Shown piece after piece: positions 9,943 to 45,735 of a DNA stretch of 64,000 nucleotides; within the stretch, counting starts at the first letter, position 1; every line of letters starts with the position of its first letter. The translations under genes were made by a program, and so were the position numbers. The stretch is from an uncultured bacterium (GTDB lineage Bacteria > Patescibacteriota > Minisyncoccia > Phycocordibacterales > GWA1-40-21). The notes under the pieces were generated by a model that saw only the letters and a list, made by a program, of their open reading frames with translations, did not search any database and had not been told where the DNA came from. The DNA is taken from positions 196,315-260,314 of the forward strand of contig CAWCTC010000001.1 of NCBI GenBank assembly GCA_963798465.1, read 5' to 3'.

Positions 9943-9967
9943 ATTTTATTAGTTAATAAACAAAAAC

Positions 9968-10258: not shown

Positions 10259-10271
10259 TTTTTAAAAAAAT

Positions 10272-10541
10272 ATGAAAAAACAAAAATACATATTGGAAAA
10301 ATTATATCAAGATTTTAGAAATGCTCTTGCAGAATGGATTGTTGCAAAAACAAAAGCAAGAATTAAAGATGGATTTTATGATTTAAATGATATATTTAAA
10401 AAAATAGAATGGATTGAGAAGTATGATAAGAAAAACAAAAAGATGTTAGATAAGGTTAATAAAACTGAAGAAAAGTTTTTAAATAAAATAAATCCCAAGT
10501 TTTTTAAAAGCTATCTTCAATATTTAAAGGAGGAATATTAG
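10272..10541 (+). CDS. hypothetical protein
   Basis: Listed 89-aa ORF, Lys/Glu-rich, tightly spaced after the previous gene. Confidence 0.35.
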   Translation: MKKQKYILEKLYQDFRNALAEWIVAKTKARIKDGFYDLNDIFKKIEWIEKYDKKNKKMLDKVNKTEEKFLNKINPKFFKSYLQYLKEEY

Positions 10542-10547
10542 ATTTAG

Positions 10548-10940
10548 TTAATCCTGAAAAAACTTAACTATATTACCTACAAAAAGTGATAGTAGACCAT
10601 AGCCAGCCAAAGTTAACCCATAAAGTGTCTGTGGTGTATTTAAATCAATTCCACCATGTTGAGAAGCACTATTTCCAGCCCAAGCCAAACCACCAAAAAT
10701 TGCACACCATGAAAAAAATATAATCCATCTGCCAGTTTTTTTCTTTTTCTCTCCATGAGAAATAACCACTTTATTGGTATTAATACCCATGATTGCAACT
10801 ATAACTGCAACAATTACACCTCCTATTATTGTGCTTATTAAATTACTCATATTGAGTTGTAGTTTAAACAATATAATCAAAAAGTAAAGTAAGACAAAAT
10901 TTAGCACACGTTTTATTGGGCAGATAAAGTTAATATTCAC
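10548..10940 (-). CDS. hypothetical membrane protein (true start possibly Met-31 at 10850)
   Basis: Listed ORF with three to four hydrophobic helices. Confidence 0.4.
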   Translation of the reverse strand: MNINFICPIKRVLNFVLLYFLIILFKLQLNMSNLISTIIGGVIVAVIVAIMGINTNKVVISHGEKKKKTGRWIIFFSWCAIFGGLAWAGNSASQHGGIDLNTPQTLYGLTLAGYGLLSLFVGNIVKFFQD

Positions 10941-10974
10941 AAAGTTATAATTTTATGGTACAGTATAAAAACTT

Positions 10975-12150: not shown

Positions 12151-12159
12151 TTAAAAATT

Positions 12160-13467
12160 ATGATAAATATTTGTAAATCACCACTAGATACAGCATATAA
12201 TCGTTTAGATGAAGCACATAGATCTTGGCACAATGCATTAAGCGGTTATCATAAAATAAATGATTTTCGTGCTGGTATAAATAGTGCGATTCAAGCACTT
12301 AGAAATCTAACTTTTGCAATACAAAAACAAAAAGATAATTTGCCGAACTTTGATAATTGGTATGCAGGCTGGCAATCAAAGATGAAAAATGATCCTATTC
12401 TTAAAGAACTTCACGATGCTAGAAACATTATTGTTAAAGAAGAGGATTTAATTTTATATAGTACTGCCAAAGCAACCACAAAAGGTTGGATGGATTTTGA
12501 AAAGACAGCGTTCACCTTTGATCCTTTACAAGATAGTTACACTGTTGCAAAGGATTTTTATGATACATATGCAAAATATTTACCTATAGCAGAAGATCTT
12601 AAAAAAAGATTAATATTTGAGTTTGAAAGAAAATGGGTTTATGAAAAAATACCAGATTATGAATTGTTAGATGCGATTTCTCATTCATATAATTTTCTCT
12701 ATGAAATACTTAAAGATGCAGAAGAAAAATTTTCTTTGCCCATAAAAGAAAATAATAGTACAGGAGATTATTGTACGAATGAATTAAATGACAAAAATAA
12801 ATTAAAATGTATGATAATTACATCACAAGAACGTTGTTTAAAATTTAGTTTTGAAAACGGAGCTTCCCTTGAAATGAAAACAGAAAAAATTTTATTAAAA
12901 GAAAGTGATTTAGATGTTGCACATAAAAGATATGGTGACAAATGGAAATCAGATGAGACACTAGCTTTACTTGAAGGTCTTTTTGCAGATGAATATCCAT
13001 TTAATCAAATGAAACTGTTTTCTCAAGTTGCTGTTGCTGCTCTAAAAAAAGATAAACATCTTATTCCAGTATCTTTCCTTTTTAAAATAAATGATAAAAG
13101 GCCAATGATTATATCTGGTGAATTTCAAAACCAGGAGCATAAAATAATGGTTATGGATAATATTGCTTCAGAAATTGTAAAAAATAATATTAAGTTTGTA
13201 CTTACAATAGCAGAAATTTGGAGATACGATTATGATGAAAAAAACCCACATTTTTTCCCAACAGGAGAACAAAGTGGTAGAGCTAAAGAAGCAATTGAAA
13301 TTGCCTGTTTATCTACTAATAAAATTAAGTTAATTGCGATACCATTCAAAAAGAATATTTTTGGAAAAATTATTTATTCAAAACCAGAGGTAATAAAAGA
13401 ATCTTCCACTGATAATTACCCACCTTCTATTTTTTCACCTATTATTAATGCATTGAGAAGTAATTGA
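12160..13467 (+). CDS. hypothetical 435-aa protein, likely co-transcribed with the Shedu-like gene
   Basis: Listed ORF, 9-nt gap from the previous stop. I recognise no family. Confidence 0.45.
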   Translation: MINICKSPLDTAYNRLDEAHRSWHNALSGYHKINDFRAGINSAIQALRNLTFAIQKQKDNLPNFDNWYAGWQSKMKNDPILKELHDARNIIVKEEDLILYSTAKATTKGWMDFEKTAFTFDPLQDSYTVAKDFYDTYAKYLPIAEDLKKRLIFEFERKWVYEKIPDYELLDAISHSYNFLYEILKDAEEKFSLPIKENNSTGDYCTNELNDKNKLKCMIITSQERCLKFSFENGASLEMKTEKILLKESDLDVAHKRYGDKWKSDETLALLEGLFADEYPFNQMKLFSQVAVAALKKDKHLIPVSFLFKINDKRPMIISGEFQNQEHKIMVMDNIASEIVKNNIKFVLTIAEIWRYDYDEKNPHFFPTGEQSGRAKEAIEIACLSTNKIKLIAIPFKKNIFGKIIYSKPEVIKESSTDNYPPSIFSPIINALRSN

Positions 13468-24921: not shown

Positions 24922-27900
24922 ATGACAAATTTAAAAAAATACATACCATTTTTTTTCGCTGCAGCTCTTATTTTATTGCCTATAAAATCTTTTTCGGCAC
25001 CTTTGTATTACCCAGGACAGACAATAGATCCTCAATGTTATCCGACAGATTCTGATTGTGCCGTTAGCACAACAACTTCTTCCTCAGTTTGGAATCTTAA
25101 CGGCACCAGTGCAAATTATTTGGCTGGAAATATCGGAATTGGAACTTCAACGCCGAGCTCGCTTCTTTTTGTCAATGGTTCGACAACAATTTCTTCTCTT
25201 ACTTCCGGATTTGTAAAATCAGATAATTCTGGAAATCTTTATACTGATTCAACCGCATATACTACTGAAGGGGAAAATGATAATTTATCTTACAGATACA
25301 ATACGGTGCCGCTTTTATATTGGACTGATGCTCCTAAAGTAGTAAAGACCATAAGTGTTACACATACGAATAATTATGGCACATGGGATGGGAAAAATCT
25401 TTGGGTTCCAGGCGGCGGAGCTGATAATATATCAAAAATAAATGAGAATGGACAAATTTTATTTACTTATAGTCTTTTATCTACTCAATATTTAGGAAAT
25501 ATAGCATCTCCTTTACAATTGGCATATGATGGAAGAAATATTTGGATAGCAAGCTACGATAATTATGGACAACTGATCAGATTTGATACTGTGACTAACA
25601 CTATTACAGGCCATTATATAATGAATCCTTCAGGATCTGGAGGTGGAGGAATACAAGGGATTGTTTGGGATGGAACTAATATATGGATAGGTCTTGCTCA
25701 AGATAATGGTGGAACTGGTTTGGTTGAAAAAATTGATCCGAATACCGGAGCAGTATTGGCTTCTGTTGGAGGCCAGACTAATGTAAATGGAATGGCAATA
25801 ACGGATTTGCCATCAGCGTCTGGAAATGGAATGACTGAATATATTTGGGCTGCTTGCGATGGTTTCATAACTAAAATAAATGCTAGCGATATGACATATC
25901 AGTCATTTCCTTCAGGCGTATATACGTATCGCATAGCGACAGACGGACAATACATTTATGGAGCAAGTTTTGAAGATGGAGCAATAAGAAAATTTTCAGC
26001 TGAGGACGGTTCGCTTGTTGCAACTTGGCCGGCCAATCGACTTCTGAATACGATTGCTTTTGATGGAAAATATATTTGGACAGCGGATAATAATTATAAC
26101 GTGACTATTTTCGATAGAGATACTGGAAATGTTATTTATACTTTGCCTAATGCTGGCAGTTCAGATTTGATTTTCGACGGAACTTATATGTGGAGTATTT
26201 CATATATGATTGGACAGGTAAATAAAATTTCCGTAGGAAATGAAATAGGTAATTTGAAAGTTGCACAAAGTTTAAGCATTATGGATGATAATTCAAATAC
26301 GGCTTTATTTCTTTCAGGAACTTCTACCGAGAAGTAGTTTCATGTTGAGTAATTTTGGAATCGGAACAACAACACCTTCTCAAGCTTTGACAGTGAATGG
26401 AAATATGAATTTGTCTGGAGCATTTTTTGACAGTACAAATGCTTCTGGAACCGCAGGAATGGTATTGCTCAGTACTGGTACAAGCACTACATGGGTATCA
26501 ACATCCTCACTGAACATAAATGGAAGTATGAACAGCGGTGTTGCTGGCCAGTTGGCATATTGGACATCTCCAAGTGTAATAGGAAGTCTTGCAACTGGAA
26601 CGCCAGGATTATTTTTGAGAGCTTCCTCAACTTCTCCAACTGGATTTGATTGGGCCTTTGCAAGCAGCAGCAGCATAAGCCAATGGAATACAAATGGTTC
26701 AAATATTTATTACGATGAGGGAGATGTTGGAATCGGAACTTCAACTCCAAGTTCGGCTCTTGATGTTATCGGTATGGTTACAGTAGATAATGTTTCTTCT
26801 CACGCAAGCAGTTCACTAACTTTATCCGGCGGAGATGTTATTAATCTGCAGTCTCCTAACGGAATGCAATATAGTAATGGAAATAATATAGAAAGTTATT
26901 TGAATAATAATGAAATTTATTTTAATTTTTCCGATCCGACTGACAGCAATGCCGGCGCATCATTGGATTTTTACAAACAAGGACTTTCCGGAAATTTTAA
27001 ATCGGACGATGGTTCCAGTGGAAGTTTGACTATAAATAATGGCGAAACTTATTCAGGTTTTTATAATGGAAATGATAGTTCTTATGGAAGTTCAGAGGTG
27101 ACAAATTCTGGTATTCATCTAAGTTTCAATAATTCATCAAATGGTACTCTAGGAGACTCGTTTGTTTATCCATTTGAATTTGGCGGAGATTTTCAAAATG
27201 GTTCCAATAGCGGGCATATATATGCAGAAGATACTGCTCTTGATATAAGTGGAACAGATATAAACGGCGGCAGTGGAATTCACTCTGTTGAAGTAAGTCC
27301 AAACACTGCTTCCATTTTTCGGACAGAGCACGACATCATCTCCTTATTATAATTTCAGCATAGACAAAGATAATGGATTATCGGTTTCATTCAGCACGAC
27401 AACTCCTGTGTTTACAGTTCTCACAAACGGAAATGTCGGAATTGGAACTTCAACTCCTTCGCAAGCTCTGACAGTGAATGGAAATCTTGCTTTGTCAGGA
27501 GCGATTTTTGACAGCACGAATGCTTCGGGAACTGCAGGAATGATTTTGGAAAGCACGGGAACTTCTACTTTATGGACTGATACTAAATCTCTGACTGGAG
27601 GAGCCGGATATTCTTGGACCGCTCAAACCGCGCCAGGAACTTCCGCGTGGTCGTCTGTTGTTTATGGCGATGGAAAATTTGTCGCGGTATCTTACGACGG
27701 TCATGTAATGAATTCTTCCGATGGAATAAATTGGGCGACTTCAACATCAGCCGAAGCAAACAGTTGGACTTCCGTAACTTACGGCAATGGATTATTTGTC
27801 GCGGTTGCGAGCAGCGGAACTCATCAAGTTATGATTTCCAAGGATGGAATAAATTGGACTTTACAAACAGCAGTTAATGGTTCGTGGAATTCAGTAACTT

Positions 27901-30900
27901 ACGGTGATGGAAAATTTGTTGCGATAGCAGCGGGACTATGGACGATGTCTTCTCCTGATGGAATAAATTGGACACTTTATACTGTATTTTCGGGTGACTC
28001 TTGGGATTCAATAACTTATGGTAACGGATTATTTGTTGCTGTCTCTGGAGGCGGTCATGTGGCGGTTTCCAATGACGGAATAAATTGGACACAAACATCT
28101 ATTGTAGCTGATGGATGGCAATCAATAGCTTACGGCAACGGATTATTTGTTGCTGTCGCTAGTGGTGGAGATGTTGAAACTTCTCCAGATGGAATAAATT
28201 GGACGGCGCAAATATCAGCCATTCCAAACTCATTACGCTCAATAGCTTATGGCAACGGATTATTTGTTGTAGTCACCAATAGCTTAGGCTCAACTAATCA
28301 AGTTATGACTTCACCCGACGGAATGAATTGGACAGTCCGATCATCCGCTGAAGCAAATACTTGGAATTCGGTAGCTTACGGAAATGGAACTTTCGTTGCA
28401 GTTTCTCAAGATGGAACTCATCGGGCCATGAGTTCGGGCGAAACAGATTCAAATATAATTCCTACAGATAATATTTATCAAGGTGGAATGAATATTTTTG
28501 GATATGTCGGAATTGGAACAACAACTCCATCGCAGGCTTTGACGGTGAATGGAAATCTTTCTTTGTCAGGAGCAATTTTTGATAGCACAAATGCTTCTGG
28601 AACAGCTGGAATGATTTTACAAAGTACGGGTACGAGCACATTATGGACGATAAATTCATCGCCAAGTTTCGCATATGCTTCGTCATCATATCTTTTGTAT
28701 TCTTCTTCAACGGAAGTTTTGAACTCTGCGAATTTTGCCCCAGTTTCTATTCCTAGTGCCGTAACTTATGATACAAATACGTTGGCAGTTTATAATTTTG
28801 AAAATAATGGGAATGATTCAATCAGCAATTATAATTTGACACCAGTAGGCACCGGTCCAGTTTTTCAAACAGATTTAATAAAACAAGGTTCATATTCAGA
28901 AAGTGTTCAGGTTGGTAATGGCAGTGGTGCTAATTATGATATATTTCCAAATTCTTTGATGACAACTCTTGGAAGTGAATCTCAGTGGACTATTGAAGGA
29001 TGGGTATATCTTAGCTCAGTACGAAGTCCTAGTGTATGGAGTACCTTTATTACAAATAATTGGGCTACAACCACAGGAGATTTGGCTGTAGAACTTAGAA
29101 CGGATTCACCCGATGTATGTTTTGGGTATGCTCCTCAGATGAATAGCTGTGGCTATGATCCTTCAATTACAACTGATGCTTGGCATTTTGTTTCAGTCCA
29201 GTGGGATGGTTCCAATGCGAAATTATATATAGATAGTTCGTTAGTCGGAACAATTGCTTCTTCAATAAATATCTTTGCCTCTCCAATCGGACCAATGGTA
29301 ATTGGAAATGGAACAACTTATTCAGACAGTTATAATACAAATTCAAGAATTGATAAAATGATTGTAAGTAATGTTGTCAGAAACGGAGTTGAAACAGATC
29401 CAACGATTGGCGGATATTTTACCCCTCAAATATTTGCAGATGCTTCCGGAACTCTTTTTGCTAAGAACGCAATTGGAACAATATCCAATCTTAATTCTTG
29501 GGTAACAAATGGCAATAATACAGATTATCTTTTAGGAAATGTTGGAATTGGTACTGACGCACCATCGTCGGCACTTACAGTTATCGGTTCAACTACAATC
29601 TCAAGTCTTTCTTCTGGTTTTGTAAAAGCAACAGCATCAGGAGAGCTTTATACAGATCCGAATACATATTCTACAGAAGGGGAAAATGATAATTTATCTT
29701 ACAGATATAATACAGACCCACTTTTATATTGGAGTGGTGCTGGTCCACAAATAGTTAAAAATATAACTGTTCCTGGTGCTGAAAATTATGGAGCTTGGGA
29801 TGGTCAGAATTTTTGGACGACGAATTTTTACAACAGTTCCATATCAAAAGTAAATGCAAACGGAGTTGTTTTGGCTACTTATACTTTTTATGGCACGAAT
29901 CCAATACAAGCGGTTTATGATGGAAAAAATATTTGGGTTGCCAGTGCAAACGGTCTTGGCACGTTGATAAAATTTAATCCAACCACCTTAGCTTCTTCCA
30001 CATATATTACGAATCCTGGAAGTGTCGGTTCAGGAGGAATCCAAGGCATTGTTTGGGATGGAAAAAATATTTGGATAGGTATTGCAGGTATTAATACCGT
30101 TGCAAAAGTAGATCCGTCTACTGGTGCGATTATTGCATCGACAACCGGACAATATAATGTAAACGGAATGGCTATAACAAACATAGAAGAAGCCTCCGGG
30201 ACTGTGGAATATATCTGGGCGGCTAATACGTATGGTTTGGGCAAAATAAAAGCAAGTGATTTGAGTTACACGACTTATCCCGCCAGACAAGGTTCTTATC
30301 GCATAGCTACAGATGGAACATATATATATGATTCCGATTGGTTCACTGGAAAAATCGACAAATATTTAGCAAGTGACGGTTCTCTGGTTGACACATGGCA
30401 AGGTGAAACAGGTTTAAATACGATAGCCTTTGATGGAAAATATGTTTGGACGGGAGGTGGCGGACCAGATCTCGTTGAAATTTTTGATAGGGATAACGGA
30501 ACCATGATTGATTCCATTCCTGATCCTGGAGTGGGTACAGGCCTTGCAGATTTGATATTTGACGGAAGTTATATGTGGGCTGTTGTAAACGGTACATCTT
30601 CATCAGTGATGAAAATTTCCATCGGCAACCAGATGGGTAACTTAAAAGTTGCACAAAGTTTGAGCATCATGGACGACAATGCCAACACAGCATTATTCCT
30701 TTCCGGCACATCAAGTCAAAACAGTTTCATGCTAAGCAATTTTGGAATCGGCACCACGAGCGCCTCATCCGTCCTCACAATATCCGGAACTCCAACAAGC
30801 ACACTTATGCGACTTGTAGGATTCGGAAGTGGTGCTCTCATGACTGATGCAAACGGAGTTGTCTATGACAACTCAGACGAAAGATTGAAAGACATTGCAG

Positions 30901-31838
30901 GAACTTCAACAATCGGTCTTTCTGCAATAGAAGGATTGAATCCTATAAATTATCATTGGAATGCAACAAGCGGTCTTGATATGGTAAATGAATACACAGG
31001 ATTCTCTGCACAAAACGTACAAGCAAACATTCCAAATGCAGTCGGAACAGATTCAAAAGGTTATCTCACTCTTGATGACAGGCCAATAGTCGCAGCTCTT
31101 GTAAATTCCGTAAAAGAAATCGGTTCATTCATCACAAAAGTTGAAAATGGAATCGCTTATCTCACGAACATTGTTGTTGAAAGATTAACTGTTGGTTCAA
31201 CTATTTCTCCTGAAGGAATTACGATGTATGACACTGTGACGAAACAGCCGTATTGCGTTTCTGTAAGCAATGGAAGTCTTGTTAACAAACCTGGAGATTG
31301 TTCATCATATGATTCATCGACATCAACATCGGAAATGGAAAGTCTAGGTACGGGCGGAAGTTCTGCTCCTGATATAATTTCCACTTCCTCTACTTCTTCA
31401 GTTGATATTTTAACTTCAACTTCTTCTTCCGAAACCTCCACCTCGACTGAAGCAACTTCCACGAGTTCAACCGCAACCACCACGCAAGCAACCTCAACTC
31501 CTTCCAGCGACGGCACCGCGACTTCAACAGCAACTTCAACTCCAGCAGACACCACACCTCCAGTCATAACAATAAACGGAGATAATCCAACAAACATAAC
31601 AGCAGGAGACACATATACAGATGCAGGAGCAACAGCTCTAGATGATATAGATGGAACAGTTCCAGTATTGACTTCAGGCGCAGTCGATTCTTCAACAGCC
31701 GGAACTTACACAATCACTTACACTGCAAGCGATTCTTCCGGAAACACTTCAACAGCCGAAAGAATTGTAAATGTCGCACCTGTCCAAACTTCCGATGATA
31801 GTGCGACGAGCAGTGATGCGACATCGACAGTTTCGTAA
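24922..31838 (+). CDS. giant (~2300 aa) secreted surface protein, split into three ORFs by two frame breaks as sequenced
   Basis: - Signal peptide, and a duplicated beta-propeller-like module (24.9-26.3 and 29.5-30.7 kb).
- A thrice-repeated GIGT(S/T)TPSQALTVNGN..LSGA.FDSTNASGTAGM module.
- Six S.DG(I/M)NW(T) Asp-box-like repeats, and a LamG-like lectin region.
- SDERLK intramolecular-chaperone (peptidase S74-like) domain, a Ser/Thr linker and a C-terminal Ig-like (DUF5011-type) domain.
- Frame breaks near 26330 and 27318. Confidence 0.7.
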
Positions 31839-36836: not shown

Positions 36837-37430
36837 TTAAAATATTTTTTTGCTTTTAAATTCATCTCTGCTATAAGGACCTCTTTCCCAGCCGGTTAAG
36901 ATTTTTTTCATAAATTCTTTTGATTCATCATTAGACATTGTTTTCAATCCTAGTTCTGAAGCAACTTCTTCTATTTGTTTGATAGTTTTAGGAACATTTT
37001 CTTTGTTGTCTATCACTATTTCCATTTCACAATGAAAACCCCAGCTGACAGTGTATTTTATGGCAAATTCTACTCCTTTATATAAATAGTTGTGACGATT
37101 TTGGTATGAGTATAAATGATTTTCACCGTAACCAAGAATATCTAATATTCTTAAAACATTATTCATATCTTTTGGTAAAAAATTAACATCAATCTCTTCA
37201 AAGTCATCTCCAAGGCCAATTTTTTGAAGTTTTAAAGTTAATTTGGCACTATTTTTAGTTTCACTATTTACAACTTTTATAAGCTTATCTGGAAGGTGAT
37301 AGAAGTATGAATCTTTATTATCTTCACCCAGGTCTTTACCATTTTTAATAAGAAAATCATTTAGTTCAATAAACTTCTTTTCATCTATCAGCGAGCGTAA
37401 CTCAACTTCAATATTTTTCTTAGTTTCCAT
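36837..37430 (-). CDS. CYTH-domain (triphosphate tunnel metalloenzyme / class IV adenylate cyclase-like) protein
   Basis: N-terminal KNIEVELRSLI (ExExK-like) and a beta-rich ~190-aa size. Start taken at METKK. Confidence 0.5.
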   Translation of the reverse strand: METKKNIEVELRSLIDEKKFIELNDFLIKNGKDLGEDNKDSYFYHLPDKLIKVVNSETKNSAKLTLKLQKIGLGDDFEEIDVNFLPKDMNNVLRILDILGYGENHLYSYQNRHNYLYKGVEFAIKYTVSWGFHCEMEIVIDNKENVPKTIKQIEEVASELGLKTMSNDESKEFMKKILTGWERGPYSRDEFKSKKIF

Positions 37431-37529
37431 TATAAAAAGTATAGCATAAATGATTAAATTAGAATGCATAAAATTTTAAATAATAAAAAACTAGCCATTT
37501 TCATGGCTAGCTGTGTTGAATGGGGGAGT

Positions 37530-38165
37530 TTATTTTTCCAGTTTTGCTAATGCATCTCTTAGTTGAGATAAGATGTATTGAGCTTTATCAGGACATTCTT
37601 TATTGATGTCCTCAATAAGTGGAAAAAAAACTTTTCTTGTTTCTTTAATTTTTCTTTGCTGTTTTTCCTGACAACAAGAATCAAGAGTTCTTGTATTGTG
37701 CAGTCTGTCAGCCAGTTTGATAAGTTTAACCTCAATACTGGAATTCTTTACATGTTCAAAATACCATTTAAGTCTTTTCTTGTTTGATGAAAACCGCGGG
37801 TCATCCTTTTTCGGTTTTGTTACCGCTGAGACGAACTTAGCTACTCGCTCACCGAAAATAGTTTTGATTCTATTCTCCGTAAGTATGTAGCTATCTTCAA
37901 GGATGTCATGAAGTAAAGCTGCGATAATAATTTCTACGTCAAAGATTCCAAATTCTTCGGCGAGAATTATTGCCACAGCTCTCACATGTTCAAAATATCT
38001 TGCATCTGTTTCTCTGAACTGATTTCTGTGTCCATACTTTGCCAGTTGATAGGCAAAGTCCAATTTTTCCATTTCAGCTGGGGAGATTTTAAGACAAAAA
38101 ATGTTCAAGAACCTTTTGTGATTTTCACCACACGTACCTTCTTTTCTTCTCGCATCCTCGTTCAT
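37530..38165 (-). CDS. HD-domain (p)ppGpp hydrolase-like protein (SpoT/RelA hydrolase domain only)
   Basis: YFEHVRAVAIILAE...IIAALLHDILEDS...KLADRLHNTRTL. Confidence 0.7.
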   Translation of the reverse strand: MNEDARRKEGTCGENHKRFLNIFCLKISPAEMEKLDFAYQLAKYGHRNQFRETDARYFEHVRAVAIILAEEFGIFDVEIIIAALLHDILEDSYILTENRIKTIFGERVAKFVSAVTKPKKDDPRFSSNKKRLKWYFEHVKNSSIEVKLIKLADRLHNTRTLDSCCQEKQQRKIKETRKVFFPLIEDINKECPDKAQYILSQLRDALAKLEK

Positions 38166-38316
38166 TTTATCTCTCCTTTTTGAGATGTATTTTGTAAACT
38201 ATATTAAGGTCCTAAATCTGGCTTGATTCTAGAGTAAATAGGGAGGAGTGTCAAATTAAAATATAAATAAAATTTTGTTTGAGAAAACATATAATAAATG
38301 ATACTATGCTTTCCAT

Positions 38317-38398
38317 GCGCCGGTCGTATAGTGGCAATTACACGAGACTGTAAATCTTGCGGCTTCGGCCTTCGGGGGTTCGAGTCCCTCCCGGCGCA
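38317..38398 (+). tRNA. tRNA-Tyr (anticodon GTA), long variable arm
   Basis: Acceptor GCGCCGG/CCGGCGC, anticodon loop CTGTAAA, variable arm, T arm GGGGG?TTCGAGTCCCTC region. No CCA. Confidence 0.8.
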
Positions 38399-38431
38399 CA
38401 TTGATGAGATAATGTGGCAGTGTTTGTTAAT

Positions 38432-38460
38432 TTGACATAATCTCAATATATCTATATAAT
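38432..38460 (+). promoter_or_regulatory. consensus sigma70-type promoter (TTGACA-17 nt-TATAAT) upstream of tyrS
   Basis: TTGACA at 38432-38437, a 17-nt spacer, TATAAT at 38455-38460. Confidence 0.6.
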
Positions 38461-38501
38461 ATACAGGTATAATTATTTAATAAATTTATTAGGTTAATAA
38501 T

Positions 38502-39899
38502 ATGGAAAAATTTGAAATGAAAAATAATATTGAAGATAACCATTCTGAGAATGGTGCTATTGATAAATCAAAAAAACATGTTAAAGAGAGTATAGAATCT
38601 CCTGATTTTTTGAATATATTAGAAAAAGAATTATTGGATAGAAGAGAATTTGATTTATCTGAATTATCTAGTAAAGAACAATTTGAATTGATTAAAGATA
38701 GGTCATTAAATATAATATCTGAAAATGATTTATTAGAGAGGCTTGAAAAATCAAAAAAGGAAGATAAACCTCTTGTTGTAAAATTCGGTATAGATCCAAC
38801 TGGATCTGAGATACATATTGGTCACGCAGTACCTATGGTTATAGTAAATAGATTACAAAGAATGGGTCATAAAGTAGTATTTGTTATAGGTGATTTTACA
38901 GCAAAGATAGGCGATCCAAGTGGAAGAACTGCAGAGCGTCCAGCATTAACTGATGAAATTATTACTCAAAATCTTAGTTCTTATAAAGAACAAATTAAAC
39001 CGTTTTTTGATTTATCAAAAGCTGAGATTTTACATAATGGTGATTGGTTAAATGATATTAAGTTACCCGATTTTGTTAAATTATTAAGTAAAATTAATGT
39101 TTCCGATTCTTTACAGAGAGATGATTTTCGTAAAAGATTATCAGAAGGACAAGGTTTGACACAAGCTGAACTTATATATTCCGTGATTATGGCTATGGAT
39201 TCTTTACATATTGATAATGATGTCGAGGTTGGTGGAGTTGATCAATTATTAAATTTACAGATGTGTAGAAAAGTTATGGAAATAGAAGGTAATAAACCTG
39301 AATGTTTGATAACAACAGGATTATTACCTGGTATAACAGGAAATGATCAAAAAATGAGTAAAAGTCTTGGAAATTATGTTGGATTATCGCATTCTTCAAA
39401 GGAAATATATGGGAGAATAATGTCAATACCAGATTCATTACTTGAAACTTACTTTAAAGCTATGTCTGAAATTAATGATGAGGAATGGGATATCTTGGAT
39501 AATATGATTAAAAATGGTGGTATAAATCCAATGGAGGTCAAAAAAATGTTAGCTAGATATATAGTGTCAGTATTACATAACAAAAATGAATCAGAAGATG
39601 CTGAAAAAGACTTTGCTTTAAGATTTTCTAAAAAAGATTATTTAGAATTAAATGATTTAAATTCGTACGAACAAGTTGATGGAAACTCTTCAATTTTAGA
39701 TTTTCTTTCAGAAAAAGAATTATTTAAATCAAAAGGAGATATTAGAAGACTTGCTACAAGTGGAGCAATTAAGATAATAAGTAATGATGGCACAATTATA
39801 AAAGTAGATAATCCTTTAGATTCTTTTGAATCTAAGATATCACTTAAAGAATTTATATTGAAAATTGGTAAAAAAGTTCTATCAATAAAATTGAAGTAA
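38502..39899 (+). CDS. tyrS: tyrosyl-tRNA synthetase with ~85-aa N-terminal extension and S4-like C-terminal domain
   Basis: HIGH region GSEIHIGHAVPM, FVIGDFTAKIGDPSGR, KMSKS (DQKMSKSLGN). Confidence 0.8.
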   Translation: MEKFEMKNNIEDNHSENGAIDKSKKHVKESIESPDFLNILEKELLDRREFDLSELSSKEQFELIKDRSLNIISENDLLERLEKSKKEDKPLVVKFGIDPTGSEIHIGHAVPMVIVNRLQRMGHKVVFVIGDFTAKIGDPSGRTAERPALTDEIITQNLSSYKEQIKPFFDLSKAEILHNGDWLNDIKLPDFVKLLSKINVSDSLQRDDFRKRLSEGQGLTQAELIYSVIMAMDSLHIDNDVEVGGVDQLLNLQMCRKVMEIEGNKPECLITTGLLPGITGNDQKMSKSLGNYVGLSHSSKEIYGRIMSIPDSLLETYFKAMSEINDEEWDILDNMIKNGGINPMEVKKMLARYIVSVLHNKNESEDAEKDFALRFSKKDYLELNDLNSYEQVDGNSSILDFLSEKELFKSKGDIRRLATSGAIKIISNDGTIIKVDNPLDSFESKISLKEFILKIGKKVLSIKLK

Positions 39900-39900
39900 A

Positions 39901-40971
39901 ATGACGGAAAATATTTCGGAGAAGAATATAAACAAAGTGGTTTTTGACGATAGTTATTATTCTGAAATTATTAAAAAATATAACTATAATCCAGTTGACT
40001 TTAAAAAAATAAATTTTTCTATTAATAATTTAGATATCGCAACTCTAGAAAGTAAATTTGTCTGTCATCATAATGGAGATGTGTTTGTAGATAATATGAA
40101 AAAAGGACAAAAATCTATAATCACAACTGGTTTTGGTTTAAGTGGAAATCCTCATCTTGGTAGTATATCTGAAATGTTAAAAATCGTTGCTTTTTCAAAA
40201 GCTGGTTTAAATACCCAGGTAGTTCTTGGTGATCTTGATTCATATAATGCTAGAAATCAAGAAATTGATATTGTGCGTAAAAGAGTAAAATTATATATAA
40301 AATTTTTGAAAAATTTAGGATATAATAAAAATAATATATTAAGAGATCAATATTCTCACGTTGACGTATTACATACAGCTTTTATAATAGCCCACTATTT
40401 GACAGATGAAGATTTTACAGAAGCTGAAGAAGATATTTCTTATATATACAAAAAAGAAGGTATATATAAAAATTTTAGTTTCCCCATGAAACTTTCTTTA
40501 TTATTAATGATTGCTGATTTTATTCATCTAGGGACTGTTAATGGAAATAAAAATATTATGGTAATGTTAGGAATGGAAGAACATAAATATGTTCTTTTAG
40601 CTAAAAAAGTTGTTGAGAGGATGAACTTAAAAATTAACATTTCGGCAATTTACGGTAAAATAATAAAAGGATTAAATGGATATCCTAAGATGTGTAAGAG
40701 TATAAAAAAATCATCTATAAGCGTATTAAATACACCTAAAGAAATATTATCATTACTTTATAATAATAGTGATTCTTTAGATAATATTGATAATAATGCT
40801 GTTTTTCAAATGATGGAACAGACATCATATTTTACCGCATCTCAATTAAAAGATATTCGTTCTATTTGTAAAAGAGGGGATAAAAAAGAATGGACAAAAG
40901 TTATAAAAAAATATTCTATAATGTTGAATAAAATATTAAGTAAGTGGCCTAAAAATAAGGATTTATCTTAG
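39901..40971 (+). CDS. divergent class Ic aminoacyl-tRNA synthetase paralog (TrpRS-like)
   Basis: HIGH-like GLSGNPHLGS, VVLGDLDSYNAR, KMSKS-like YPKMCKS..ISVLNTPKEI. It starts 1 nt after the tyrS stop. Confidence 0.5.
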   Translation: MTENISEKNINKVVFDDSYYSEIIKKYNYNPVDFKKINFSINNLDIATLESKFVCHHNGDVFVDNMKKGQKSIITTGFGLSGNPHLGSISEMLKIVAFSKAGLNTQVVLGDLDSYNARNQEIDIVRKRVKLYIKFLKNLGYNKNNILRDQYSHVDVLHTAFIIAHYLTDEDFTEAEEDISYIYKKEGIYKNFSFPMKLSLLLMIADFIHLGTVNGNKNIMVMLGMEEHKYVLLAKKVVERMNLKINISAIYGKIIKGLNGYPKMCKSIKKSSISVLNTPKEILSLLYNNSDSLDNIDNNAVFQMMEQTSYFTASQLKDIRSICKRGDKKEWTKVIKKYSIMLNKILSKWPKNKDLS

Positions 40972-41003
40972 TGTTTTATTGATATATCAATATTTGATTG
41001 ATA

Positions 41004-41972
41004 TTATGGTAAAAAAACTATTTTTTTAGTTTGAGTTTTACCTTTGTTTTTAAATAATTTTAAACCTATTTTAAAATCTTTAAGTTTAAAAACATTTGTA
41101 ATGATACCCTTAATTTTTATCTTTTCTTTGAGTATTAGGTCAATAGCTTTTTTAAAATCATCTTTTCTATTGGTCTTGGTGTAAGAATTTGATCCAATCA
41201 TACATATTTCTTTTGAGAATAATTTTCTAGCGTTTAGTGGAAGAATATAGTTTTCTTTAAAAACACCCAAAACCAATATCGTACCTCGTATTTTTGTAAT
41301 ATCAATTGATGTATTTACTGTACTACAATTGTTTCTTCCAACGCATTCAACGGTGATATCGAAATGATCTTTATATTTAGAATAGTTTTTTGTATTTTTA
41401 TCAAATAGAATAGCTTCTTTAGCTCCTTTATATTTTGCTACTCTACGGAATAATTCTCCTATAGTCCCATTACCTATAATCCCAACATTCTTATTGTATA
41501 AATTTGGAATAAATTGAAGTGCGTGTATACACACAGCTAATGGATCAGCCAATACAAATTTGTATTCAAATTTATCAGATGGTATTTTATACAAATTTTT
41601 ATTATTTGTAACAAGTATTTTTTCAGCAAAACCACCATTAACATTTTTACCTAATGCTGTTTTATTCAAGCAGTGTTGTATGTATCCTTTTTTACAAATA
41701 CTACATTTTGAACAACCAATTATTGGGGAAATGACTACCATATCTCCAATTTTTATTGGACTTCTATTTTTGTTTGTAACAATAACTTCACCAATTATTT
41801 CATGCCCTAATATTTTTTTTTCTTTATATCCTATTTTTTCTATATTTTGAACATCACTACCACATAATCCTACTGCCTTAACTTTTACAATTACATCATT
41901 ATTCTTTATAATTTTTGGGTCAGATACCTCCTTATATAGAATTTTGTTTTTTGATATTACAATTGCTTTCAT
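41004..41972 (-). CDS. zinc-dependent medium-chain dehydrogenase (threonine/sorbitol dehydrogenase-like)
   Basis: VKAVGLCGSDV, GHEIIGEV, structural-zinc Cys cluster CSKCSICKKG..HC, GNGTIG Rossmann motif. Confidence 0.7.
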   Translation of the reverse strand: MKAIVISKNKILYKEVSDPKIIKNNDVIVKVKAVGLCGSDVQNIEKIGYKEKKILGHEIIGEVIVTNKNRSPIKIGDMVVISPIIGCSKCSICKKGYIQHCLNKTALGKNVNGGFAEKILVTNNKNLYKIPSDKFEYKFVLADPLAVCIHALQFIPNLYNKNVGIIGNGTIGELFRRVAKYKGAKEAILFDKNTKNYSKYKDHFDITVECVGRNNCSTVNTSIDITKIRGTILVLGVFKENYILPLNARKLFSKEICMIGSNSYTKTNRKDDFKKAIDLILKEKIKIKGIITNVFKLKDFKIGLKLFKNKGKTQTKKIVFLP

Positions 41973-43102
41973 ATATATTTTTTATATTTATTAGAGTTTC
42001 CACCAGTCAACATAATAAATTCCTCAAGTTTTTTAATAGCTAATCCAGATTCTATTGCTATCTTAGCTTTATTATAACCGTCAGTAATATTGCTAGCCTT
42101 ATCTGAAAGAAATAATATAGTAGCCGCATTTACACATATAATATCAATTAATGCCTCATTTCCTTTACCAGATAAAGCTTGAACTCCTTTTTTAATATTC
42201 ATTTCTTTATTATTACCTTGCATTATTGATTCTCTATCATATCTAGGGAATTTTAAAATATTTGCTGTTTGTATACTTTTAATATTACCGATAACTCCAT
42301 TTTTAGCTCCTATTATCGATGTGGTACCGAATACACCAACTTCATCAAAGAAATGTACACCATCATCTGTTGTTGTAACTACCATAACATTTTTATATCC
42401 AAGTTTTAAAAAAACTTCTGCTGATGTATTTATACTATTATGAGATAAACCATAAAGTAGTACATTTGGTTTAAAGGGTAAAACAGTTCCAGCCAAGCCC
42501 AAACTTAAAACATGTGGTGCATAAAAATTACCACCATATTTTGAATCAAATTTTTTTATTTGATTTTCAATTTTAAAAAAACCTAAGCCTGTTTTTTTAA
42601 GTATATTAATCATTTTTTGTTTGTTAATATTTATATTTGCTCCTAATGATTCTATAAAATCACTAGAACCGCTTGCTGATGAAGTTGCTTTTGAACATGG
42701 TTTGGCCACATATGCTCCGATTGATGCAGCTACTATTGCAGCACATGATGAAACATTTATTGTTTTAATTGCTTTTTTCCCACTACCTGCAACTCCAATT
42801 ACTTTTTTATTTTGACCAATATCTATGATGGGTATGTTGTCAATATTTATATTATCTAATTTTAATGCTGCCTTTATAAAGCCTACAACCTCATCCACTT
42901 TAGGTTGTTTAGCCATAATTCCATTAAGTAAAATACCCATGATTACTGCTCTTTTGGTATTATCTTTAATTTTTAAGGCAGTTGAAAATACTTTGAAGGA
43001 CTCGGATTCATTCATATCCTGCCGAACATTCATCTTATATACTGCATTTTGCAAAATATTTGGCAACTCTATTGATTTTGCAAATTTTTTATTTTTTTTC
43101 AT
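41969..43102 (-). CDS. glycosyl-transferase family 3 protein (anthranilate phosphoribosyltransferase / nucleoside phosphorylase-like), divergent
   Basis: GVAGSGKKAIKTINVSSCAAIVAAS is the counterpart of the TrpD GTGGDG..tfNiSt.aA motif. Size is 377 aa, with a 4-nt overlap with the downstream dehydrogenase. Confidence 0.5.
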   Translation of the reverse strand: MKKNKKFAKSIELPNILQNAVYKMNVRQDMNESESFKVFSTALKIKDNTKRAVIMGILLNGIMAKQPKVDEVVGFIKAALKLDNINIDNIPIIDIGQNKKVIGVAGSGKKAIKTINVSSCAAIVAASIGAYVAKPCSKATSSASGSSDFIESLGANININKQKMINILKKTGLGFFKIENQIKKFDSKYGGNFYAPHVLSLGLAGTVLPFKPNVLLYGLSHNSINTSAEVFLKLGYKNVMVVTTTDDGVHFFDEVGVFGTTSIIGAKNGVIGNIKSIQTANILKFPRYDRESIMQGNNKEMNIKKGVQALSGKGNEALIDIICVNAATILFLSDKASNITDGYNKAKIAIESGLAIKKLEEFIMLTGGNSNKYKKYI

Positions 43103-43640
43103 ATTTCATATTTATATATTCTAATACTCTTTTTACAGAATCATTTATTGTTTCGTTTTCAGAGTTTAATACTAAATCTGCCATTTTGTATTCGTTTTTT
43201 AAAGATGAATAAATTTTAGATTTAATTTTGTGGAGTGAAACCTTATTTATTTTATTAATATCTTTTCTGCTTGTCGCTCTTAAAAAACATGTTTTTACAC
43301 TAGCTTTAATTTGTATAACAAAAAATAATTTATTAGTTTTTCTTGCAAGATTTTTTAATAATTTAATATATTTATCTTGTTCAATACTATTGTCTAATAT
43401 AACATTAAAGTTATTTGAAATGAAGTACTCACAATTGTTCAGTATTATATTAGCAATATCATCATTATATCTTTTAGAAGTGTTTTTATAATCAGATATA
43501 GTGTATTTTATATAATCTGGTTCTATAAGGACAGTCCGGTAAAAAGTTTTTTGTAACTCTTTTGCCAAAGTAGACTTGCCACTACCCATCGGACCATTTA
43601 TTATTAATAAAAAATTGTTTCTACTCATATATGTATACAT
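43089..43640 (-). CDS. P-loop kinase (AAA_33/zeta-toxin-like fold)
   Basis: Walker A INGPMGSGKSTLAKEL. An internal Met is chosen because the listed N-terminus runs through the RayT-flanking repeat. Confidence 0.55.
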   Translation of the reverse strand: MYTYMSRNNFLLIINGPMGSGKSTLAKELQKTFYRTVLIEPDYIKYTISDYKNTSKRYNDDIANIILNNCEYFISNNFNVILDNSIEQDKYIKLLKNLARKTNKLFFVIQIKASVKTCFLRATSRKDINKINKVSLHKIKSKIYSSLKNEYKMADLVLNSENETINDSVKRVLEYINMKYEKK

Positions 43641-43682
43641 TATTACATTTTTTGTATAAAAAGAAATAAACCTAGGGGAAAA

Positions 43683-44394
43683 GGGGTCAGGAGCCTTTTT
43701 ATGATATACTCTATTCATGCCAAGAAATATTAGAGTAGATATTGCAGGAGAAATATATCATATAATAAATCGTGCAAATGCACGGATGAAGATTTTTGAT
43801 AATGATAAAGATTACAAACTATTTGAACAAGTATTAGAAGAAGCAAAGGATCGTACAGACATAAAAATATATGCATATTGTGTAATGCCAAATCACTGGC
43901 ATTTAGTTGTATCACCAAAAAATGATGGCAATCTATCAAAATTTATGGCTTGGTTCACTATGACACATACCCAAAGATGGCACTCAATGCACAAAAGTAT
44001 AGGAAGTGGTCATTTGTATCAAGGAAGATACAAATCATTTATTGTTCAAAGTAATGAATATTTTTTACAACTATGCAGATATGTGGAAAGAAATCCAGTA
44101 AGAGCAAAATTAGAAAAGAAAGCGCAAGGTTGGAAATGGGGAAGTCTATGGAGAAGAGAAAATGGAACTATAGAACAACTTAAAATTCTAAATTCATGGC
44201 CAACGGACACACCAAAAAACTATCTTGGTTGGGTAAATGAATCTGAATCAATAGAAGCACTCAGTCTAATTCGAAATAGTGTGAATAAAGGTAAACCCTA
44301 TGGTAAAATGTCGTGGATAGAAAAGAAAATTGATGAGTATAAACTTGAATCAACATTACGCAGTCCTGGAAGACCAAAGAAAGGCTCCTGACCC
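43683..44394 (+). mobile_element. RayT unit bracketed by 12-bp inverted repeats (GGGTCAGGAGCC ... GGCTCCTGACCC)
   Basis: Left repeat within 43683-43695, right repeat 44383-44394, which overlaps the stop codon. Confidence 0.6.
43717..44391 (+). CDS. REP-associated tyrosine transposase (RayT / IS200-like Y1 HUH transposase)
   Basis: YHIINRAN..., HUH motif MPNHWHLVV, catalytic-Tyr region LCRYVERNPVRA. Confidence 0.8.
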   Translation: MPRNIRVDIAGEIYHIINRANARMKIFDNDKDYKLFEQVLEEAKDRTDIKIYAYCVMPNHWHLVVSPKNDGNLSKFMAWFTMTHTQRWHSMHKSIGSGHLYQGRYKSFIVQSNEYFLQLCRYVERNPVRAKLEKKAQGWKWGSLWRRENGTIEQLKILNSWPTDTPKNYLGWVNESESIEALSLIRNSVNKGKPYGKMSWIEKKIDEYKLESTLRSPGRPKKGS

Positions 44395-44447
44395 TATTTT
44401 TTCCAAAGAAGTTTGATTTTGCGAATATCTTTGATAAAGACAAAAAT

Positions 44448-44657
44448 ATGATCTTGTTTGATCAAAGATATTCTTATGAAAACAATAGGACAGAAAAATG
44501 TTTTTCAGAAAAATGTCCCTTTGTGCCAGTATGTAATGGTGGATGTGTATGGCGTTCAATTTTTAAAAATCCACCGAATGGATATTTAAATCGGAATTGT
44601 AATAAGACGGCGATGTCGATTATTAATTCGGGTTTAATCAAATCAGAATTTTTGTAA
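44448..44657 (+). pseudogene. 3' remnant of a radical-SAM/SPASM-domain maturase gene
   Basis: Only the C-terminal CPFVPVCNGGCVWRS SPASM-type Cys cluster is present. There is no radical-SAM core upstream, and it abuts the RayT unit. Confidence 0.5.
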
Positions 44658-44674
44658 TTACTAATTTGACTAAT

Positions 44675-44706
44675 GGCGGGTTGTTTTTCGACAGCCCGCC
44701 TTTTTT
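44675..44706 (+). terminator. intrinsic terminator
   Basis: GGCGGGTTG-TTTTTCG-ACAGCCCGCC followed by T6. Confidence 0.7.
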
Positions 44707-44718
44707 AGTATACTATAT

Positions 44719-45452
44719 TTGAATATGCTATATAAACAATTTATTAAAAACTATAAAGAAGATTATAAAAAATATAATGGATGGTTGAAGAAGGAAACAA
44801 GTCACTACATCTTTAATTATTTTGATAATAAATTTATAAAAGAACATATAAATAGGATATCAAAAATCCAGGAAAATTCTAATAATAAAATTTTTGAATT
44901 TTTAGGTATAAGAAATGCAAAAAAATTAATTATTATATATATCCAAGTGAATTTTTAAAAAGTAAATATATGGGCAATCCAATTTATGCTCAGTCTGTTT
45001 ATAAAGATTATTCAGTACACATAGTTTATAATAAAAAAATTAGACCTCTTGGACCTCATGAAGATACACATTTAATTTCTTTAAAATTTGGTTTACCGCC
45101 AAGTTTTTTTGCTGAAGGTTTAGCAGAATCGATTGCAAGCAAAAAAAGATTTTTTAATGGTAAAAGCAGAAAATATTTTATTAAAAAATGGTTGAACAAA
45201 TATGATAAAGATAGTCTATCTAATTTTTTTATTCAAAAAGGTTGGCTCGATACTCCAGATAATGAAAGCGGGGAGTTTTATTCAATAGCAATGTCCTTTA
45301 CCTTGTATTTGATAAAAGTTTTTGGCAAAGAGAAATTTTTTAAATTATATAAAAAAATTAATAGAAATATGACTATAAAGCAAATAGTTTATACAATGGA
45401 GAAAGTTTTTCTGATGGATTATGAACAAATAATCTCTAATTGGAAAATATGA
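44719..45452 (+). CDS. hypothetical protein (possible metallopeptidase-like HExxH-less fold), split by one frame break as sequenced
   Basis: ORFs 44719..44958 and 44970..45452 join as ..KKLIIIYIYPSEFLKSKYMGNPIYAQ.. if one base is adjusted in the (TA)n run near 44935. Confidence 0.45.
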
Positions 45453-45735
45453 ATGGCAACGTTGAATCTTACCATTTAGATTATTTAATGGGCAAAATAC
45501 GGCTAGAAATTTAGCAAATATATTATTATTCATATTTGCTTTTTGAAAAGCTTTATTGTATTATCTTTTTATCTTAGCTACTTGGCTGTACGCAAAGGTT
45601 GCCTGTTTCCGAAAGGAAATATATAGAGTTGAATACTTAACGAGTTGCGGGGATTTTTGCGATTAAGAAGGGAGCAAAAGTTTCTGTAGCTTTTTTGTTT
45701 ATAAGATATATCTTTATTAGAAAAAAATATTAATT

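Follow-up and report, generated by a model that had tools for sequence, protein, structure and literature searches.

The window analysed here is a 64,000-nt stretch of DNA from an uncultured bacterium of the Patescibacteriota (assembly GCA_963798465.1, contig CAWCTC010000001.1, positions 196,315–260,314). The element of interest is an AT-rich block at 38502–43718 of this window, in which the genes for a tyrosyl-tRNA synthetase (TyrRS) and a synthetase-like paralog converge with an operon encoding a small kinase, a TrpD-like protein and a dehydrogenase. The features of the block and its borders, in window coordinates, were as follows (aa, amino acids; ORF, open reading frame).

38317–38399 (+): tRNA-Tyr (GTA), found by ARAGORN
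38432–38460 (+): TTGACA-17-TATAAT, a putative sigma-70-type promoter matching the consensus at 12/12 positions, upstream of the TyrRS and paralog genes
38502–39899 (+): cluster-linked TyrRS, 465 aa (ORF map, TIGR00234)
39901–40971 (+): class-Ic synthetase-like paralog, 356 aa (ORF map, PF00579), after a 1-nt gap from the TyrRS gene
41004–41972 (−): Zn-dependent medium-chain dehydrogenase/reductase (MDR), 322 aa (ADH_N and ADH_zinc_N)
41969–43102 (−): TrpD-family (Glycos_transf_3) protein, 377 aa, in 4-nt overlap with the dehydrogenase gene
43089–43718 (−): small P-loop (AAA_33) kinase, 209 aa, in 14-nt overlap with the TrpD-like gene
43717–44391 (+): IS200/RayT-like Y1 tyrosine transposase gene (Pfam Y1_Tnp), at the edge of the island
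44392–45735: AT-rich tail, 26.3% GC, with small ORFs (e.g. 44970–45452), running up to rpsL

The tRNA-Tyr, the perfect promoter match, the TyrRS, the 356-aa paralog 1 nt behind it and the convergent operon all lie where an initial annotation, made from the letters of the sequence, had placed them.

The 465-aa protein scored 296.7 bits on TIGR00234 (tyrS, cut-off 113.8) and, with its HIGH (EIHIGHAV) and KMSKS motifs intact, is a bona fide TyrRS. Its N-terminal extension, initially put at about 85 aa, has that length when counted up to the Pfam domain, but only about 55 aa when counted against TIGR00234, where model position 4 corresponds to residue 58. An N-terminal extension with a conserved motif of the type D-L-x-x-L-S-x-E-E-Q-F is shared by the TyrRS of the window's clade. 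The 752-kb genome contains four PF00579 genes. Apart from the two in the window, these are a bona fide tryptophanyl-tRNA synthetase (TrpRS) at C1:545721–546677 (310.9 bits on TIGR00233) and a second, housekeeping-type tyrS at about C1:110888–112079 on the minus strand (locus L001); the initial annotation had suggested looking for a further canonical trpS or tyrS, and both were found. Searches of 30 relatives, 18 from the genus of the window's bacterium and 12 from its order, found one tyrS in each, to which the C1 tyrS is orthologous. No further TyrRS passed the cut-off in any of the 30, and the window's genome was the only one of the set with the cluster TyrRS. In all 30 relatives tyrS is intact at about 400 aa. 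The first 29 codons of the C1 copy lie in another frame, and its match to TIGR00234 starts at model position 27; this may reflect decay after the gain of a second TyrRS, or an assembly error. Because the genome's other tyrS is frameshifted, the cluster TyrRS may now also be the working TyrRS of the cell.

Other carriers of the cluster were also compared. Three actinomycete genomes have a separate housekeeping TyrRS that is 23–27% identical to the window TyrRS, and their cluster TyrRS is 44–48% identical to it. A Woesearchaeote carries a bacterial-type TyrRS in its cluster, adjoining its own archaeal-type TyrRS, and a Doudnabacterium has a second copy besides the cluster TyrRS. At six DPANN loci (L022, L025, L027, L028, L032 and L060), a bacterial-type and an archaeal-type TyrRS stand in tandem directly upstream of the cluster genes. 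For the phylogeny, a tree of 54 TyrRS rows was built in which 12 of about 50 actinobacterial loci served as representatives and three spurious ORFs were excluded. The window TyrRS fell in an 18-row clade (SH-aLRT 99) together with cluster-linked TyrRS of a metagenome-assembled genome (MAG) resembling the candidate phyla radiation (CPR), of Clostridia, of Acidobacteria and of Actinobacteria, and the Streptomyces housekeeping TyrRS lay outside this clade. Two further clades of cluster-linked TyrRS (support 100 each) mixed phyla, and one of them mixed domains.

The ligand site was then inspected in an alignment of 139 rows, of which 129 remained as TyrRS after 10 spurious non-TyrRS ORFs had been dropped. 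At the Y-x-x-x-Q-x-x-D motif, which contacts the amino group of tyrosyl-AMP, the window TyrRS has the sequence YSVIMAMD, in which Met replaces Gln. Met was found at this position in 71 of the 129 rows, among them every row of the window's 18-row clade, and Val in a further 19, which form a DPANN-type cluster clade and include the bacterial-type member of the six tandem pairs. Gln was kept in the remaining 39 rows: in all five housekeeping copies, in all seven archaeal-type copies (the partners in the tandem pairs among them) and in 27 other locus-linked copies. The solved TyrRS structures that were aligned have Gln there in 3/3 cases. This Gln was replaced separately in two clades of cluster-linked TyrRS, a pattern that would fit an adaptation to resistance. 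An extra TyrRS that travels with the gene cluster, branches in a clade apart from the housekeeping enzyme and has an altered ligand site suggests a self-resistance copy of an antibiotic target.

The second synthetase-like protein is of a different kind. PF00579 was its only Pfam domain over the cut-off (47.4 bits), and it missed every curated cut-off for an aminoacyl-tRNA synthetase (aaRS), scoring 59.3 bits on NF006330 (220 required), 34 on TIGR00233 (176.75) and 17.8 on TIGR00234 (113.8). No S4 or SYY C-terminal domain was detected by the Pfam scan. As first noted, PHLG (residues 84–87) stands at the HIGH position and KMCKS (residues 263–267) at the KMSKS position. Among 63 paralog sequences, His85, Gly87, Lys263, Met264 and Lys266 were invariant; KMCKS was confined to close relatives of the window protein, and most members of the family have KMSKS. 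The invariant motifs of the family are G-x-G-x-S-G-x-P-H-x-G, V-x-G-D-x-D, E-x-x-E-H-x-Y and K-M-x-K, with VLGDLDSYNARN and EEHKY as family-specific ones. Conservation of the His, the Gly and the two Lys in the ATP motifs argues for adenylate formation by the paralog.

An AlphaFold2 (AF2) model of the paralog (mean predicted local distance difference test, pLDDT, 90.4) matched archaeal/eukaryotic TrpRS and TyrRS over nearly the full length at 13–20% identity, with template modelling (TM) scores of 0.72–0.77; TM was 0.75 for the TrpRS 3a04 and, normalized by target, 0.77 for the Methanocaldococcus jannaschii TyrRS. In the model, the Rossmann fold is still followed by the helical domain. The segment aligned with the Gln/Asp-bearing stretch of M. 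jannaschii TyrRS variants reads L-M-I-A-D-F-I-H; that Gln and Asp we take to be tyrosine-binding residues. The N-terminus of the paralog is extended by 65 residues, which include a conserved Cys-His-His. Searches returned 152 relatives at 40–77% identity, named 'hypothetical' or 'TrpRS', and the family is small, with 120 representatives at E ≤ 1e-30 among 1.84 billion proteins. A profile of the family was positive in 1/401 sampled genomes of the phylum, the window's own, and because of this restriction the island appears to be a rare and recent acquisition.

The TrpD-like protein scored 143.3 bits on TIGR01245, under the cut-off of 199.05, and was similar over its full length to the solved TrpD 9ucw (E 6e-21). 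Aligned to this structure, GTGGD is replaced by GSGKK and KHGN by KPCS, which bears out the divergent active-site loop that had first been remarked on. Both lysines of GSGKK are invariant in the TrpD-like family, and the Asp-Glu metal pair and the SS..GS.D phosphate-binding stretch are kept. A canonical anthranilate phosphoribosyltransferase was considered and rejected, the score being below the TIGR01245 cut-off and both GTGGD and KHGN being altered. The gene for the Zn-dependent MDR dehydrogenase is translationally coupled to the TrpD-like gene. The kinase matched AAA_33 at 44.4 bits, and its best curated match, the L-seryl-tRNA(Sec) kinase, reached 37.1 bits against a cut-off of 290.5. Its true start is probably near 43628, because its homologues align from residue 31. 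Clear relatives of the kinase were seen in the nearest clusters only (63% identity in L120 and 39% in L103).

Conservation of the gene set was assessed from two directions. Genome loci were anchored on the paralog, with one genome per species (80 kept of 117). Metagenome loci were anchored on the TrpD-like gene (80 kept of 123, many on short contigs) and were found with an alignment of TrpD-like proteins; a single TrpD-like protein as query gave no matches. At the paralog-anchored loci the TrpD-like gene was present in 76/80, the dehydrogenase in 73/80, the TyrRS in 72/80 and all four genes together in 68/80. With the TrpD-like gene as anchor, the paralog was found at 62/80 loci, the dehydrogenase at 53/80 and the TyrRS at 49/80, figures that include the many short contigs. 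The co-occurrence that the initial annotation had asked about is therefore borne out for four of its five genes, the kinase being restricted to the closest clusters. The hosts include CPR bacteria, Alphaproteobacteria, Clostridia, Bacilli, Acidobacteria and Thermodesulfobacteriota, and further many Streptomycetaceae, Nocardiopsis, DPANN archaea, a Methanosarcinales MAG and a Bacillus thuringiensis plasmid. Natural fusions join the TrpD-like protein to the paralog (P0377, 717 aa; P0401, 736 aa) or a HAD phosphatase to the paralog (P0080, 590 aa). Two other proteins, P0317 (911 aa) and P0356 (885 aa), combine the paralog with N-terminal regions of about 560–580 aa for which no Pfam match was obtained.

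Signs of mobility were frequent around these loci, among them a relaxase with a type IV secretion system (T4SS) coupling protein (L016), a relaxase with DUF317 in Streptomyces, and transposases (L025). On the B. thuringiensis plasmid pBMB172 (L089, NZ_CP021438.1, 110240–116636) the module lies between IS6 and IS4 insertion sequences (IS) in the order paralog, TrpD-like, ADH, HAD, major facilitator superfamily (MFS) transporter and tyrS, with the paralog and the TrpD-like gene annotated as hypothetical proteins; this was the only cassette with an MFS transporter. The window's cluster is a mosaic. Identity to L118 and L120 is 76–78% for the TyrRS and paralog and only 36–50% for the TrpD-like protein and dehydrogenase. 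In L103–L105 this pattern is reversed for three of the proteins (TyrRS, TrpD-like protein and dehydrogenase), the paralog, at 60% in L103 and 62% in L105, being the exception. Accessory genes varied. The low-GC loci carried a HAD phosphatase in 17/31 cases and a HIT hydrolase in 11/31; P-loop, CPT-like or APH-type kinases, a metallophosphoesterase, a sulfotransferase with genes for 3'-phosphoadenosine 5'-phosphosulfate (PAPS), glycosyltransferases, radical SAM enzymes, methyltransferases and NUDIX proteins were also seen. The genes thus form a conserved mobile unit that occurs across bacteria and archaea.

The identity of the linked synthetase was found to depend on the type of paralog. All 160 loci were typed by the better-matching of two paralog queries, that of the window ('Y') or that of L145 ('W'), and were distributed as follows.

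Y paralog, TyrRS only: 109 loci
Y paralog, no linked full-length aaRS: 23 loci
Y paralog, TyrRS and TrpRS: 1 locus
W paralog, TrpRS only: 7 loci
W paralog, TrpRS and TyrRS: 1 locus
no paralog detected, TrpRS: 7 loci
no paralog detected, TyrRS: 2 loci
no paralog detected, no aaRS: 10 loci

A W-type paralog with TyrRS alone was seen at 0 of the 160 loci, and the partners of the W type are TrpRS (236 and 239 bits on TIGR00233). A change of paralog type from Y to W is accompanied by a change of the linked full-length synthetase from TyrRS to TrpRS. In this sister module a TrpRS stands in for the TyrRS, and the TrpD-like gene is joined by a paralog that is far more diverged (about 27% identity). 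It was assigned to L128, L135, L145, L146, L149, L153, L156 and L173, and also to L138, L139, L143, L148, L150, L154 and L165. Methyltransferase and HAD genes lie alongside it in L128 and L145, and in L150, where no paralog was detected, four radical SAM genes stand beside the TrpD-like gene. In L153, which lacks the MDR dehydrogenase, an aldo-keto reductase gene adjoins the TrpD-like gene, consistent with a generic reduction step. As compared with prior work through section 8 of a 2026 review (PMC13235161), what is new is that the module nearly always carries an extra TyrRS and that its sister module carries a TrpRS.

The foreign origin of the block was judged from composition. GC content is 26.4% across 38502–43718 and 23.2–28.7% in the individual genes; the 733-kb contig averages 35.6% (sd 2.1), which places the block at z = −4.4. 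None of 1456 windows of 5.2 kb on the contig (0/1456) was as GC-poor. The low GC of the block, at first estimated from sampled lines, is thus confirmed, and because this is the lowest-GC stretch of the contig, it suggests that the block was horizontally acquired. A second AT-rich stretch, at 9001–13000 of the window (27.5–29% GC), is among the lowest of the contig after the cluster.

The borders of the island are defined by composition alone. At its left side, the tRNA-Tyr(GTA) is one of two copies among the 46 tRNAs of the genome. The second, at C1:371444–371526, is identical at 82/83 positions, and the duplicated stretch extends to 129 nt including the upstream flank (93.8% identity, window 38272–38400 against C1:371443–371571). 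Because it is near-identical to the other copy, flank included, the tRNA-Tyr beside the island is an endogenous duplicate and not a donor tRNA. A direct repeat of the tRNA end was not found at the far border of the island. The putative promoter at 38432–38460 was the sole 12/12 match within 38100–44500, and promoter-like sites in that interval were not enriched (47 found, 45.9 expected). At the right side, the gene initially called a RayT transposase clearly matched Pfam Y1_Tnp (73.5 bits) but fell just under the cut-off of the REP-transposase model (76.2 bits, cut-off 80). A 25-nt inverted repeat (84% complementary, 43679–43703 and 44375–44399) brackets this gene and may represent the transposase's own hairpin ends. 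The transposase gene is not conserved with the module at the compared loci. Family scans gave no matches for the small ORFs of the tail at 44392–45735, and base composition is normal again where the tail ends at rpsL. Just upstream of the tRNA-Tyr, 36837–38165 (−) encodes two proteins, one with a CYTH domain and the other a stand-alone HD_4 protein (RelA/SpoT hydrolase-like, 211 aa). An orthologue of the HD_4 protein (65% identity) was found in 1/20 same-genus genomes searched; in the empty-site and synteny comparison this neighbouring gene occurred in one relative only, with no further shared gene order. Farther away, at 27408–31838, a 1476-aa ORF encodes Laminin_G_3, Peptidase_S74 (endosialidase chaperone) and Ig-like surface domains of bacterial type, and its product resembles a large protein of the surface or tail-fibre kind.

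A published pathway with enzymes of matching types offers an interpretation of the module. Tyrocitabine of Lactobacillus iners was the subject of Patel et al. 2022 (Cell), whose abstract is said to use the terms 'Amadori synthase' and 'abortive tRNA synthetase'. As described in the relevant section of the 2026 review (PMC13235161), TybC glycosylates L-tyrosine with phosphoribosyl pyrophosphate (PRPP), probably via an Amadori rearrangement, and TybE reduces the product to a linear form. TybB resembles TyrRS and has a Rossmann fold but lacks a tRNA-binding domain; by attaching AMP to the carboxylate it yields the active compound. The product is then converted to a prodrug through acylation by TybD, a nonribosomal peptide synthetase (NRPS) with the domains A-PCP-C, and is exported by TybA. 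The same section states that tyrocitabine acts post-transcriptionally and that Archaea and many Candidatus bacteria have related clusters, each of which encodes a TybB homologue (PMC13235161).

We infer that the module is of the tyrocitabine kind, with TybC corresponding to a TrpD-family protein and TybE to an MDR dehydrogenase. The block would then be a horizontally acquired biosynthetic cassette of tyrocitabine type with a spare variant TyrRS that serves as a target copy for self-resistance, a reading to which we assign a probability of about 0.72. In the first step, the TrpD-like protein, as a proposed 'Amadori synthase' comparable to TybC, would move the phosphoribosyl group of PRPP to the amino group of L-tyrosine, and an Amadori rearrangement would follow; this assignment draws on the protein family and on the review. 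The Zn-dehydrogenase, a putative TybE-like reductase, would reduce the resulting ketone to an open-chain polyol. The paralog is proposed to be a TybB-like 'abortive' adenylating enzyme that would adenylate the carboxylate of the N-substituted tyrosine and then stop, leaving a stable look-alike of tyrosyl-adenylate that would block translation. Its conserved ATP motifs point this way, and as modelled it answers to the description of TybB in being TyrRS-like, with a class-Ic Rossmann fold and no bacterial-type tRNA-binding C-terminal domain. The small kinase might phosphorylate the product or an intermediate, for example into an inactive storage form, a role assigned weakly. Finally, the co-transcribed TyrRS would be a compound-tolerant copy of the target that protects the producer, as its linkage, phylogeny and active-site change suggest; under the proposed pathway, the tyrosine amino group, which sits at the Gln contact, is the atom that would be substituted. 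The initial annotation had listed small-molecule synthesis and synthetase-based self-resistance among its options, and it is this option that the evidence supports, with the tyrocitabine pathway as its published relative.

Several observations weigh against this interpretation. The molecular target of the L. iners compound is described as unknown in the section of the 2026 review that covers it (PMC13235161), and no L. iners protein was among the named matches of the window's proteins. A TybD-like NRPS and a TybA-like exporter are absent from the window by ORF map and family scan. The ORF maps of 80 genome and 13 metagenome loci showed no ORF of NRPS size, the remaining 67 metagenome loci having been screened by tblastn with the cluster proteins only. 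The window also has no HAD phosphatase, against the 17 of 31 low-GC loci that do. Since 27 locus-linked bacterial-type TyrRS (from the Bt-plasmid clade, Bacilli and Alphaproteobacteria) keep Gln, the Gln change is not universal, and some of these linked enzymes may be ordinary neighbours. Lastly, the locus counts come largely from related genomes, among them about 50 Streptomycetaceae, so the independent events are few, roughly three TyrRS clades and the TrpRS type.

The alternative that survives best, although unlikely, is that an N-glycated tyrosine is made for a non-antibiotic use, as a signal, compatible solute or cofactor precursor, with the TyrRS as a biosynthetic or regulatory partner. 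CPR and DPANN organisms live as episymbionts, and few antibiotic clusters are known from them, which would suit such a use, as would the missing exporter and the linked TyrRS with canonical Gln. The review section also reports that only the intermediate 'tyrolose' was detected in the native host (PMC13235161). The same source nevertheless describes the L. iners product as antimicrobial and as made in Escherichia coli or Pseudomonas putida without a dedicated TyrRS (PMC13235161), so that synthesis in these hosts needs no such partner. The IS-flanked plasmid cassette, with its MFS transporter and tyrS, has the layout of an antibiotic cluster (export plus target copy), and the tailoring genes differ by lineage (sulfotransferase, glycosyltransferase, radical SAM, methyltransferase). 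A target copy would be expected to change to TrpRS along with the paralog type, as the linked synthetase does; for a helper, such a change is difficult to account for.

Less probable still is a role in translation, in which the paralog would load tRNA-Tyr with a modified tyrosine, or modify that tRNA, the modified residue being made by the TrpD-like enzyme and the dehydrogenase. The predicted fold does align with full-length archaeal TyrRS/TrpRS, including much of the C-terminal helical part; a tRNA-Tyr gene adjoins the cluster in the window, L019 and L084; and the best curated match of the kinase, low as it scored, acts on L-seryl-tRNA(Sec). However, no dedicated, suppressor or unusual tRNA was found in 42 related loci scanned, where the tRNAs were ordinary ones and tRNA-Tyr occurred in 2/42 (the two loci just named), and the tRNA-Tyr in the window duplicates the genome's other copy almost exactly. 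The Tyr, Gln and Asp that we take to bind tyrosine in archaeal TyrRS are not kept in the paralog. The homologous step is described in the review section as an adenylation without tRNA (PMC13235161). The aminoacyl-tRNA-dependent form of a small-molecule pathway, also raised at the outset, is unsupported because no dedicated tRNA accompanies the module and the ATP motifs of the paralog are conserved; the nucleoside-type form with synthetase self-resistance is favoured. An expansion of the genetic code was dropped as an idea on the same tRNA result.

The simplest explanation offered by the initial annotation, a horizontally replaced tyrS/trpS pair beside an unrelated metabolic operon, has a negligible chance of being right: both proteins match PF00579 and the frameshift in the other tyrS might leave the cluster TyrRS as the working enzyme, but a bona fide TrpRS is encoded elsewhere, the paralog is not TrpRS-like and belongs to a small distinct family far under all curated aaRS cut-offs, it co-occurs with the operon genes (73/80 loci for the dehydrogenase) and is fused to a TrpD-like member in some proteins, and the composition of the block differs strongly.

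If the block is a tyrocitabine-type cassette with a spare TyrRS, a wider proposal can be made, tentatively and at slightly less than even odds. TyrRS would be the target of tyrocitabine-class compounds, the W-type sister family would make a tryptophan counterpart, and both would belong to a mobile, cross-domain group of antibiotics that mimic aminoacyl-adenylates and travel with matched synthetase immunity, even in CPR and DPANN cells. The linkage, seen at the window's locus and at about 150 related ones, names a candidate target that can be tested directly, TyrRS, and TrpRS for the sister family, and the Met/Gln position is a candidate resistance residue. A 0.75-Mb genome of episymbiont type can evidently carry a compact, transferred, antibiotic-like cassette, which bears on competition or host control. 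The loci also provide enzymology with a natural set of TyrRS variants predicted to tolerate the inhibitor and with a family of adenylate-forming 'abortive' synthetases.

Compared with known systems, the TrpD-like protein resembles TrpD (TIGR01245; 9ucw, 1zvw) in its full-length similarity and in keeping the DE and SS..GS.D motifs, and differs in its score below the cut-off, in GSGKK/KPCS and in having no tryptophan-pathway context. The paralog shares with archaeal/eukaryotic TyrRS and TrpRS (3a04, 1j1u) the fold, a HIGH-like P-H-x-G and a KMSKS-type loop; it differs in its identity of 13–20%, its N-terminal addition, its own motifs and the lack of conservation at the specificity residues. No TyrRS-linked or TrpD-linked cluster of this kind was found in the literature searches made, and for SB-219383, a Micromonospora TyrRS inhibitor considered as a possible product, no biosynthetic information was found in literature listings.

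Self-resistance by a target copy is known from clusters for aaRS inhibitors, namely mupirocin (IleRS), indolmycin (TrpRS), albomycin (SerRS) and borrelidin (ThrRS). As in these, a second, divergent copy of the presumed target synthetase lies in or beside the biosynthetic genes and is phylogenetically apart from the housekeeping enzyme. Unlike them, the present module spans both prokaryotic domains and ultra-small genomes. The closest likeness is to the tyb cluster. It differs from the window in that the latter lacks the NRPS (TybD) prodrug step, the exporter (TybA) and a phosphopantetheinyl transferase (PPTase), and encodes in their place a small P-loop kinase and a variant TyrRS of its own. 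By the review's description, the two would agree in their gene types (a proposed PRPP-dependent amine glycosylation, a putative reductase and a TyrRS-like enzyme), and the reported spread of tyb-related clusters to Archaea and Candidatus bacteria matches the distribution of the module.

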